This document shows, in pieces, positions 15,001 to 18,000 of a stretch of DNA of 64,000 nucleotides. This DNA is from Candidatus Norongarragalinales archaeon (GTDB lineage: Archaea; Micrarchaeota; Micrarchaeia; Norongarragalinales; Norongarragalinaceae), in NCBI GenBank assembly GCA_038884755.1, contig JAWABJ010000001.1, forward strand, positions 32,001-96,000, in the 5' to 3' direction. The position numbers were made by a program. Positions within the stretch are counted from its first letter, which is position 1. The number at the start of each line of letters is the position of its first letter.

Positions 15001-18000
15001 CCAGCACAACATAGACTGGGCTTCGGGTGAGAAGATGTACCTGCTGCAGCGGAGCGAGGAGATTTCGGTCGTTGCGCTTTCGAAATACGAGCGGGATTTG
15101 CTGGCGTTAGGAAAGGGACAGGTTTTGAAGGATTATTCCAACCTGGCGCTCGTGACCGTGCACCTTCCGAAAGAACAGTTCGATTCTTTCGGAGTGCTGG
15201 AGTACCTGGCGAGGCAGTTCAGCGACTTGGGCGTGAGCATAAAAGAGGTTTTTTCTTCGCACGACAAGGTTTCCTTCCTTTTCGAGGGAAGCAAGGCTTC
15301 GCAAGTGTATGAAAAGCTGAGCAACGCGGTCAAGGCGAGCCGCGAGTTCGTTGCCGAAAAGGCGAAAGGCTGAATTCAGTATTTCACGACTATTTTTTCG
15401 CCAAGGCTGGCGATGTTGCGCATGCTCAAGTCGATTTTCTGGCCAGATGTTGTCTTCACTATGAACGTCTCGTTCTTCTTGCTTATGCCGACTATCGTTC
15501 CGACCAGCCCGCCAAATTCCGTGTAAACGCTTTTGCCTTCCAAATTCATTTTAGAGAACAAGTCGTGCTTGAACTCCCTGGCAAGGTAGGCGACGAGATA
15601 CATAGCAGCAACACCGAGCAAGAGTGAGTAGAAGAAGTTTTCGAAAGACAGCGTTCCGATGACCCAGTCGGCAGCGTTAGTGAAAATGAGCCAGAACACG
15701 AGCACTCCCGCCGTTTGTATCAAATACTCTGGGAGAAAGTGGTTTTTATTTTCCGACAGCGCTTGCAGGACTTCCCCGACTATGATGAGGAGGACTGCGA
15801 CTGGCAGCAGCAAAAGCAGGTCTTTGAAAAACCAGGCGATTATTTTCGCAGTGCTTAAGGCTGCTCCGGCGTATTGCAGAGTAAAGACCCTGTTGAACGC
15901 CATCCACAGGGAAGCGACAAAAAAGGGTACGGACGCGAAATAAAAAATGAAGCTCACGTTTTCGAACGAAATGCGGAAGTTGGACAGCGCGTTGAACGCC
16001 CTTTCCTCTACTCCCAGCGCGCGCATTATCAAATACCCGCCGAGCAGTCCTATGAACAGGCGCGCGCCGAAGAATTCCGCCAGCGCGAAGAACAGCAGCG
16101 CTAGGCCCGGTATGCCGAAGACTATACGCGCGGTGTGCGGTTCCTTGAGCTTTTCTAGGACTGCAAAGTAAGTGGATTCGAGCTCTTTCGTCTGCTTTAC
16201 CGTAACCGTCTTTACGCTGTTGACTTTCACTCGCGAATTTATGAGTGGAATCGTCTGCTCGTCGGTCGCGCCGTCGCTTACGAACACGCACGCGTCGGGG
16301 GAAAGGTCGTCGATTATCTTTTCAAGCTGTTTCACCACTTCAGTGTGCGCGTGATATCCCCCGCGCGTGTCTCCGCTAATGGTGGCGATGAAAACGTTTT
16401 TCGCCTCTTCGCCCAGCTCGTCGTAAAGCTTGACTGCCGCGAAAATCGTGTTTACGTCCGAGTCTTCAGGGTCGGCTATGCCTAGCGCGTCGGCCGCGTA
16501 GATGTTTTCCTTGCGCCCTACGACCGGGCCTTTGATTTTCGCTTTAACGCCCAAGTCGTTGTCGACGTCCACGCACAACACGAGCAATCGCTTTGGTTTG
16601 GCCATTCTAACCCCTCTAGAACATAATTCGTGAAAGGCGTATTTAAGCGTCTTTCTTGCACTCAGGCAGTTTCGCAGTTGCCGGGCAGCACTGCGAAAAG
16701 CCCGTCGCTTTTCCTGAGCGAAAGCTTGCCTTTCAGGATTGGAAATAGTTCTTCCTTTTTTTTCCCGCCGGGCACCAGGAAAACGAACCCCTTCTTTTGG
16801 GCTGCCGCAAGCGCCGGCAGAGCTATGAGTTCCCCGCCTTGCGTTCCCACTGCGATTTCCAGCCGCATGTTCTTGAACCACTTCCTTTCCCCCGAAATCA
16901 GGAACGCGCCTTTGCCAACGAACTCGCCGTGCGAGTGTTTCGAAACTTGCTCTTTGCTAACGCAGTAAACGTCCGCAACCCCGCTTCCGAGCTTCCACGC
17001 GTTCGAATAGCAGGCGGCGAATTGAGCCGCTTCGCGTAAGTCTTGTTCCTTTGCTTTCGTCCCTTCTTTCAGTACGACCGCACTAGCGCCGTGGACGTCC
17101 GCATGGAAGAACAAGTCGCCTTCCTTCAGTTGCGAGGCGACGAGCGTGTCGTTTTGCTTCGCGTTCTTGCCTCCGACGCACAAGAAGCCGTTTGTCGTGG
17201 TGAAAAACCGGTATTCGTGAAACCATTTTTTCCTTTCCCTGCCCGAAGTTTGTTTTTTGGTTTCTTCCGTTTTGGTTTGTGCAAAAGCGATTTTGCGTTT
17301 TGTCTCTTCAATCGCTTTTCTTGCGCCTTCTGCCTTCCGGCGGAATTTCTTGGCTTCTTCGAAAAGCGCTTGCGCGTTTTGCATCGCGCTCTTGCGCACG
17401 TCGAGCGTTATTTTCATTTCTTTTCACTTTTTTCCGCCGGAGTCCAATTTCCCTTGCTCCAGTCTTTCTTGCTTTCGCAATTCGCCGTAAGGCACATTTC
17501 AAACGGCCGCCTGGCTTTTCTAATTACCGTAATTATGGGGGTGGAGCAAAACTGGCATTTTTTGCCTGTCGGCTTTACTAGCGCGTTTTTTGGCACTGAA
17601 AATGCGTTTTCGCATTCCGGGTAACGATTGCATGCAGCGAAAAGCCCGTATTTACCCCTGCGCAAGGCTATCTGCCCTTGCTTGCACTTGTTGCACTCGC
17701 CGAGTTCGCTCGCCTTGCGTTGAGTCTCGCCAACCGCTTCCTTGAGTTCGTTTCCGATTTCCTTTTCTTGCTTTTTAAAGTCCTTCAGGATTTTGCCCAG
17801 CACTCTCTTTCCTTCCTCTACCACTTCGTCCATCCGTTTTTTTTGCGTTTGAATTTCTTCCATTTCACCCTCGAAATGCCTCGTTAGGTCCGAGGATATT
17901 ATTTCGGGAACGTGGCGTTTCATCGCTTCGAAAACGCTCAGCCCCAGGGGTGTGACTTCAATGGATTTTCCGCTTACGTACTGCCTGTCGTAAAGCGTTT

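Follow-up and report, generated by a model that had tools for sequence, protein, structure and literature searches.

B. subtilis RqcH, yeast Rqc2 and human NEMF (PDB 7as8, 8aaf and 9gy4) are single polypeptides with shown activity, which share their domain order and fold with the two archaeal proteins described here, together with the residues DR, E(IM) and D-x-x-x-H. In the available text of bioRxiv 2020.09.03.281279, which places RqcH in COG1293, NFACT-N/HhH of the B. subtilis protein contacts the tRNA anticodon loop, D97/R98/E121 bind tRNA, and the only contacts with the 50S subunit are those of NFACT-R with the A-site finger and of the distal CC-M with uL11/H44. For archaea, ribosome quality control (RQC) has been suggested, not shown, in the available text of PMC9540759, and PDB searches yielded no experimental archaeal RqcH structure. 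A split of the family has already been published for one lineage, the Nanoarchaeota, under an older name: Table 1 and the supplement of Podar et al. 2013 (PMC3655853) give it as split in N. equitans (NEQ438/NEQ506) and Nst1 (Nst1_176/Nst1_251), at the 'same site' in the two nanoarchaea, with both Nst1 genes in arCOG01695 (COG01293). It is called 'Predicted RNA-binding protein' there and carries no link to RQC.

Here we extend this case to an archaeon of the Norongarragalinales (Micrarchaeota), in which a COG1293 member is likewise encoded by two unlinked, non-adjacent genes. The list of split genes of N. equitans reportedly goes back to Waters in 2003, whom Podar and colleagues cite. Those split Nanobdellota genomes that were read have the cut at the turn seen in the gene studied here; the N. 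equitans and Nst1 proteins listed by Podar and colleagues lay outside the alignment. In the part of the open-access literature that was searched, we found no paper joining the split to RqcH or RQC, or giving its cut site or range, and supplements of DPANN studies may tabulate it. As far as the available texts go, the word 'split' is absent from Burroughs and Aravind 2014 (PMC4075521), which defines the domains, aRqcH is not named in the review of DPANN split genes by Dombrowski 2019 (PMC6349945), and PMC8407392 contains no Rqc, NFACT or ABCE1. According to the available text of PMC4075521, CCDC25/Jlp2 resembles the carboxy-terminal half in combining NFACT-R with a small coiled coil in a gene of its own; it arose, however, from a partial duplication that left NEMF intact, whereas here there is no intact copy and the matching amino-terminal half is kept.

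The window analysed, 64,000 nucleotides of contig JAWABJ010000001.1 (positions 32,001 to 96,000; assembly GCA_038884755.1), carries the gene for the carboxy-terminal half (C-half), and the amino-terminal half (N-half) is encoded on another contig of the same genome (Table 1).

Table 1. Features of the two rqcH genes and of the C-half locus; positions count along the window unless stated otherwise.
Feature	Position	Strand	Evidence and remarks
rqcH C-half gene (P0001)	16662..17417	(-)	ORF, 251 aa; Pfam and NF041120 profile matches
Putative last strand of the M domain, C-half residues 1-7 (MKITLDV)	17397..17417	(-)	alignments; just past the cut turn in one-chain RqcH; strand call inferred from the alternation of hydrophobic residues and from the terminal strand pair in the N-half model
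Second coiled-coil helix, residues ~8-56	17250..17396	(-)	N14, A15, K23 and K28 near-invariant
NFACT-R domain, residues 69-176	16890..17213	(-)	D101-x-F103-x-H105 where B. subtilis has its DWH motif
C-terminal region, residues 177-251	16665..16889	(-)	ends in a conserved LP-G motif
DNA topoisomerase I, upstream neighbour	17414..19471	(-)	stop overlaps the C-half start (ATGA)
DUF373 membrane protein, downstream neighbour	15376..16605	(-)	context gene
Pelota	13149..14183	(+)	TIGR00111 above cut-off; 2.5 kb from C-half, opposite strand
rqcH N-half gene (P0002)	contig C2, 3495-4583 (outside the window)	(-)	362 aa; NFACT_N 66-347 (PF05833, E 1.4e-38)

An earlier note on this DNA had described aRqcH as two separate genes on different contigs, which the open reading frames and the Pfam and NF041120 matches confirm. 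Both genes are single-copy: searching the genome (93% complete, nine contigs) for the families in six frames returned a single NFACT-R match and two pieces of NFACT_N, all belonging to these two genes. On the profile of one-chain archaeal RqcH (NF041120, RqcH_arch; 645 positions) the halves matched non-overlapping parts, N-half positions 2–336 with 174.7 bits and C-half positions 381–612 with 273.5 bits; each stays below the 400-bit cut-off for a single polypeptide, the summed score being 448 bits. DPANN genomes consequently look devoid of rqcH in automatic annotation, and databases name the split halves 'NFACT RNA binding domain protein' or 'DUF814'. N-half carries the NFACT-N plus HhH lobe, and its predicted model (pLDDT 92.5, pTM 0.76), which shows a long helix (281–313), two short helices and strands at 341–345 and 348–352, found its best fold matches among RqcH, NEMF and Rqc2 structures (Foldseek, E 5e-19 to RqcH). 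In C-half, a profile search placed NFACT_N positions 369–424 on residues 1–56 and NFACT-R_1 (PF05670, E 5e-30) on residues 69–176; the best PDB sequence match was human NEMF 461–644 (E 1e-22), and the closest database relatives (65–74% identity) are named Micrarchaeota or Norongarragalinales. Residues 177–251 are a probable archaeal equivalent of NFACT-C, for which Pfam gave no match in C-half and none in a one-chain homologue either. The two-helix coiled coil and M domain are present, divided between the proteins: helix a and two strands lie in N-half, one strand and helix b in C-half. Since the C-half ATG overlaps the topoisomerase I stop, there is no space for an N-part upstream of it; this overlap suggests translational coupling, and the order of the two genes is also kept in G148, a genome of the same genus. 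The nearby Pelota is the factor upstream in the RQC pathway.

Placing the half profiles on one-chain homologues located the cut. They covered residues 5–378 and 382–627 of a 652-aa homologue, 5–366 and 369–638 (envelopes) of an Aenigmarchaeota protein and 1–378 and 392–668 of a Methanocella protein, leaving out 2–3 residues between the halves on two of the three and up to ~13 on the third. The aRqcH residues 73–351 and 469–667 given in the earlier note imply a gap of ~118 residues, which is not found on these homologues and most likely reflects how far local alignment reaches (M. jannaschii itself lay outside the comparison). At the cut, one-chain proteins run through a turn of the type L-x-G-x-x-I-x-L-D. 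Because most split N-halves end on a strand just before the turn G and C-halves begin with Met just after it, the cut appears to be the beta-turn that joins the two final M-domain strands, at the tip of the arm formed by the coiled coil, a strand-turn-strand reading based on the alignments and the N-half model. The C-half start site is uniform, with an S..ENA-type motif at offset 9 in 93 of 106 sequences, 12 being without a pattern match and one having another offset. Four N-halves (L013, L014, L017 and L032) lack most of the M domain, and that of the genome studied here is somewhat shorter than in one-chain archaeal RqcH. The turn would be the sole place where cutting leaves both folded parts whole, which would account for the several changes between split and one-chain states at this point within DPANN.

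The unlinked layout extends across the Micrarchaeota, as the earlier note had stated. Within our sample (151 genomes, 20 families, including the unpublished G029), PF05833 and PF05670 each matched every genome. All 150 listed NFACT-R rows, from 149 genomes, are open frames of 241–421 aa and thus too short for one chain; four further NFACT-R matches lie outside these rows. Both halves were among the matches listed for 146 genomes, on different contigs in 118 and on one contig, 6–924 kb apart, in 28, so that they never lay closer than 6 kb (the matches listed hold no N row for G060, G128 and G149 and no C row for G082 and G108). The same two genes recur in the one-contig genomes G016, G033, G038, G042, G099 and G107, and the separation of 236 kb reported for G016 was reproduced. 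We also considered whether long N-half frames represent one-chain RqcH in this phylum. None of the N-half loci examined, from eight genomes with long or stop-spanning matches plus both copies in G146, contains NFACT-R; the long frames represent upstream open frames or, in the case of G031, a fusion with TPR.

As a peculiarity of the Micrarchaeota, in contrast, the split did not stand, since four other DPANN phyla and the phylum of archaeon UBA55 share the cut (phylum names outside the Micrarchaeota are taken from record titles, and the groups sampled left out Nanohalarchaeota and Huberarchaeota). NFACT-R was matched in 69 of 71 Iainarchaeota genomes, always in frames of 134–343 aa, and in 49 of 54 Altiarchaeota, of which 43 have short frames and six one-chain proteins of 611–691 aa. 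Among 121 Nanobdellota (the centre of which is titled Woesearchaeota) 102 were matched, including three one-chain forms divergent from the rest. For Aenigmatarchaeota, 70 of 101 genomes were matched and 68 exceeded the cut-off: 60 in frames of at least 472 aa, a subset of which was checked to be one chain, four split at the same site, three with NFACT-R only and one at a contig edge. The UBA55 phylum (13 of 17 matched) has 11 long and two split forms. Outside the Micrarchaeota the halves are sometimes only 1.5–4 kb apart (G216, G292–G294, G467 and G478). Flanks of ~1.5 kb revealed CDC48 adjoining C-half at 10 of the 12 loci in Iainarchaeota and 4 of the 31 in Micrarchaeota, and a PRC-barrel gene beside N-half at 11 of 17 and 6 of 30 loci, respectively. 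Non-DPANN loci among the 80 best matches, which are no survey (Bathyarchaeia, Asgard, Hydrothermarchaeota and Methanobacteriota titles), are one chain apart from three frame-broken loci and one Nanobdellota-like locus. The former, Bathyarchaeia loci L100, L101 and L151 with two frames, look like frameshifts or read error; the latter, L153, is titled Methanosarcinales, and its halves are nearest to Nanobdellota at 45% and 61% identity. Neither was accepted as a non-DPANN case of the split.

Conservation of the halves follows that of one-chain RqcH. N-half residues D96/R97/E116 align with the tRNA-contacting D97/R98/E121 of B. subtilis, and among 110 split N-halves R97 is found in 109, E116 in all and D or E at position 96 in 109. 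All of 106 split C-halves have H105 and D or E at position 101; these counts were drawn mostly from the best-scoring loci and are biased toward conserved copies. The tryptophan of the DWH motif is F103 here and F, V, I or Y across split forms. Hydrophobic patterns of the two coiled-coil helices, compared between 52 split and 38 one-chain rows, correlate with r of 0.87 (74 positions) and 0.96 (60 positions), respectively. Comparison with G148 indicated purifying selection, with dN 0.27 and dS 2.02 for C-half and dN 0.37 with saturated dS for N-half. The view of an old split rather than a broken gene is thus supported, given this selection, the occurrence in 151 of 151 genomes and the absence of internal stops. 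Joint retention was assessed in the 121 Nanobdellota genomes, of which 93 are split with both halves, three are one-chain, six have C-half only, none has N-half only and 19 have neither. A strong NFACT_N match accompanies NFACT-R in 96 of 102 genomes, and the 19 without NFACT-R have no NFACT_N match better than 2e-6; the resulting Fisher p of 4e-17 is overstated because related genomes are not independent, and the joint loss may represent one or a few events only. NFACT-R without a detected N-half occurs in the six Nanobdellota and in three Aenigmatarchaeota genomes.

ABCE1 splits ribosomes together with Pelota, thereby making the RQC substrate, and is generally regarded as universal in archaea and eukaryotes and as essential to them. 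The genome studied here (93% complete) contains Pelota and Pth2, and ABCE1 was not found in it by PF04068, PF00005, tblastn or NF009945. A full-length ABCE1 query (706 bits to NF009945) matched 71 of 151 Micrarchaeota genomes at 1e-40, none of them among the 46 genomes of family f8, the 25 of f9, the two of f18 or the two of the window's own genus. All the same, families f8 and f9 keep both RqcH halves. Nine relatives in the window's order have a diverged ABCE1 copy (36–38% identity). In five one-contig genomes there were only weak generic ABC matches (best 53 bits; NF009945 below 100 bits in three); Pelota was found in all five, and HflX and MutS-type ATPase domains in none of the five tested. 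For roughly half of the phylum this complicates the picture of how the RqcH substrate would arise. We found no paper on ABCE1 loss in Micrarchaeota in the part of the open-access literature searched. It is conceivable, though we regard it as doubtful, that many Micrarchaeota, including this one, rescue ribosomes without ABCE1, by means of Pelota and a two-piece RqcH that would assemble in two steps on the large subunit, C-half docking on the 50S and N-half coming with tRNA; another factor would then split the subunits, with the unfoldase CDC48, a neighbour of C-half in relatives, as a candidate partner.

What we observed is one cut site and full tiling by genes that are conserved, present once each, and retained or lost jointly; from these sequence features we consider it likely that the halves, as a two-gene RqcH, reassemble into a heterodimer that works like RqcH. 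Points against this reading are that ABCE1 was not found in this genome, nor HflX or MutS-type ATPases in the five tested, that the DWH tryptophan is replaced, that some N-halves lack most of the M domain, and that a few genomes have NFACT-R and no detected N-half. Two-chain structure prediction is of limited help here, as the halves of split genes tend to pass by likeness to solved one-chain structures; that the halves meet in trans is what we infer. They would re-pair without a covalent link by zipping of the two coiled-coil helices, with the first strand of C-half added to the two terminal strands of N-half. In the manner of B. subtilis RqcH, NFACT-R of the heterodimer would sit on the A-site finger, its rebuilt CC-M tip would contact the uL11 stalk base, and its NFACT-N/HhH would bind the anticodon loop of the tRNA; the heterodimer would add carboxy-terminal tails on 50S-peptidyl-tRNA. 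The division into a tRNA lobe and a ribosome lobe proposed earlier is too clean: the cut lies in the M domain and CC-M is one of the two 50S contacts of B. subtilis RqcH, so that it passes through a ribosome contact to which, by analogy, both halves should contribute.

The tRNA-contact residues, as conserved as in tailing RqcH, speak against a rather unlikely variant in which the re-paired halves would still bind the large subunit but have their job moved from tailing, for example to holding or recycling subunits in lineages without ABCE1. The families that lack ABCE1 and keep both halves would suit such a job, as would CDC48 beside C-half, but the split equally stands in 70 ABCE1-bearing Micrarchaeota genomes; split and ABCE1 loss are therefore not coupled, and the missing ABCE1 leaves the split reading standing. 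We judge it still less probable that the halves are now independent, C-half being a solo NFACT-R protein with a short coiled coil like CCDC25/Jlp2. That such proteins exist in eukaryotes (PMC4075521, available text), that the genes are unlinked and that three Aenigmatarchaeota genomes have NFACT-R-only ORFs without an NFACT_N match would fit independence; the exact tiling at one site, the hydrophobic faces which both helices retain and which pair in the one-chain protein, and the lack of a strong N-half match in all 19 Nanobdellota genomes without C-half argue against it. An assembly artefact, a pseudogene or rejoining of the halves by RNA or protein splicing is extremely improbable. Although the genome is a nine-contig assembly, in which DNA reads cover parts of the stretch and not the gene start, the same layout in one-contig genomes, the absence of internal stops and the purifying selection refute artefact and pseudogene, and neither end has extra sequence that could be an intein half. 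The reassembling two-gene RqcH accordingly remains our preferred reading.

To follow the history of the split, we calculated quick SH-aLRT trees from 567 columns with the junction left out, one of 95 rows and a second of 60, 10 long or odd rows having been dropped and 25 thinned out. Rows clustered by phylum with an unresolved backbone, and split and one-chain forms grouped together in Altiarchaeota (99), Aenigmatarchaeota (85–99) and the UBA55 phylum (89–93). A single clade of all split forms was rejected (lnL 167.5 lower, p-AU 3e-13, 33 rows). Neither one clade of all DPANN rows (p-AU 0.115, 33 rows) nor one of Micrarchaeota, Iainarchaeota and Nanobdellota (p 0.085) was rejected. The neighbours common to Micrarchaeota and Iainarchaeota fit, and may support, one origin of the split in the ancestor of these two phyla. 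A single fission in the ancestor of DPANN with several later re-fusions, as opposed to several fissions at the same turn, is a plausible history that we nevertheless hold to be the less probable course. It would agree with the identical cut site in six phylum-level groups, with the DPANN clade that was not rejected, with UBA55-phylum one-chain forms lacking the M domain and with the shortened one-chain junctions of Altiarchaeota and G440. Short junctions, however, also occur in the non-DPANN one-chain proteins L105, L121 and L125 (56–62 residues), the best trees need 6–7 state changes, about equal for both histories, and the main one-chain Aenigmatarchaeota group has 69–71 residues between the anchors compared with 72–74 in the outgroup, in a similar pattern. 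Such an outgroup-like junction favours at least some independent fissions; re-fusion may apply to others. Because its state changes within three phyla, the split is a weak phylogenetic marker, and the identical cut site is no proof of DPANN monophyly.

A larger lead than the split itself may be that ABCE1 is missing from two families; a clean loss from whole families, if true, would amount to a new kind of translation cycle. Archaeal RQC has been little tested. The natural two-piece RqcH marks a point at which a break in the NEMF arm is tolerated, and its halves are ready material for assigning large-subunit docking and tRNA delivery to one part or the other.

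Beside the RqcH C-half, the separate gene encoding NFACT-R, we observed a CDC48 gene at 10 of 12 Iainarchaeota loci and at 4 of 31 Micrarchaeota loci, mostly on the same strand (the locus listed in the table and 13 other C-half loci). AMMECR1 lies close to the NFACT_N-encoding N-half in 6/17 Iainarchaeota loci, and it is also a neighbour reported for archaeal NFACT genes (PMC4075521). Pelota, encoded near the C-half in the window, was absent from the recurrent neighbours within the 1.5-kb flanks in relatives.

Features of the window and of RqcH loci (L, locus; G, genome; C2, contig)
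Feature	Position	Strand	Remark
Four-gene same-strand run	window 9456-11868	+	
Pelota	window 13149-14183	+	2.5 kb from RqcH C-half
N-half with TPR extension	L066:1360-3822 (G031:C2)	-	820 aa in all
Aenigmatarchaeota NFACT-R ORFs	L248, L249, L250 (G457, G425, G443)		open frames of 219-229 aa
CDC48 beside C-half	L039:3-1280		
AMMECR1 close to N-half	L311:3288-3956		

Several further RqcH architectures were identified. The one-chain proteins from the phylum of archaeon UBA55 (L228-L233; 556-589 aa) lack the M domain and have both coiled-coil helices directly connected; they represent either re-fused proteins or a form of RqcH that is naturally M-less. For a single genome, G031, the N-half continues into ~480 aa with TPR repeats, a frame reflecting either read-through or a fusion, while its C-half is a separate gene on a different contig. 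Two N-half matches each were obtained for G146 (L007, L073) and G120 (L011 region) of family f12, which may stem from duplication or bin redundancy. The Aenigmatarchaeota ORFs comprise NFACT-R and the C-terminal part without the coiled coil, and these three genomes yielded no NFACT_N match. Both RqcH halves of L153/G159, a record titled uncultured Methanosarcinales, have their nearest relatives in Nanobdellota, at identities of 45% and 61%, and the record is probably mislabelled or a mixed bin.

The four-gene run in the window encodes a Cys-rich, secreted-looking protein with CEYCC and CGCQH motifs and a C-terminal VGGC, a short ORF with the same VGGC ending, a CxxC protein and an SfLAP/CcdA-like membrane protein; the two larger proteins tested gave no Pfam match.

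A search of the whole genome containing the window revealed no ABCE1/Rli1, the usual ribosome splitter, and within the phylum sample it was found in 0/46 genomes of family f8, 0/25 of f9 and 0/2 of f18, including one-contig genomes (for example G016, G033, G038, G042 and G107). A diverged ABCE1 (36-38% identity) is present in nine relatives from the window's order. Where ABCE1/Rli1 was not found, in the window's own genome as well as in these three families, Pelota, an upstream factor of the same ribosome quality-control pathway, and both RqcH halves are retained.
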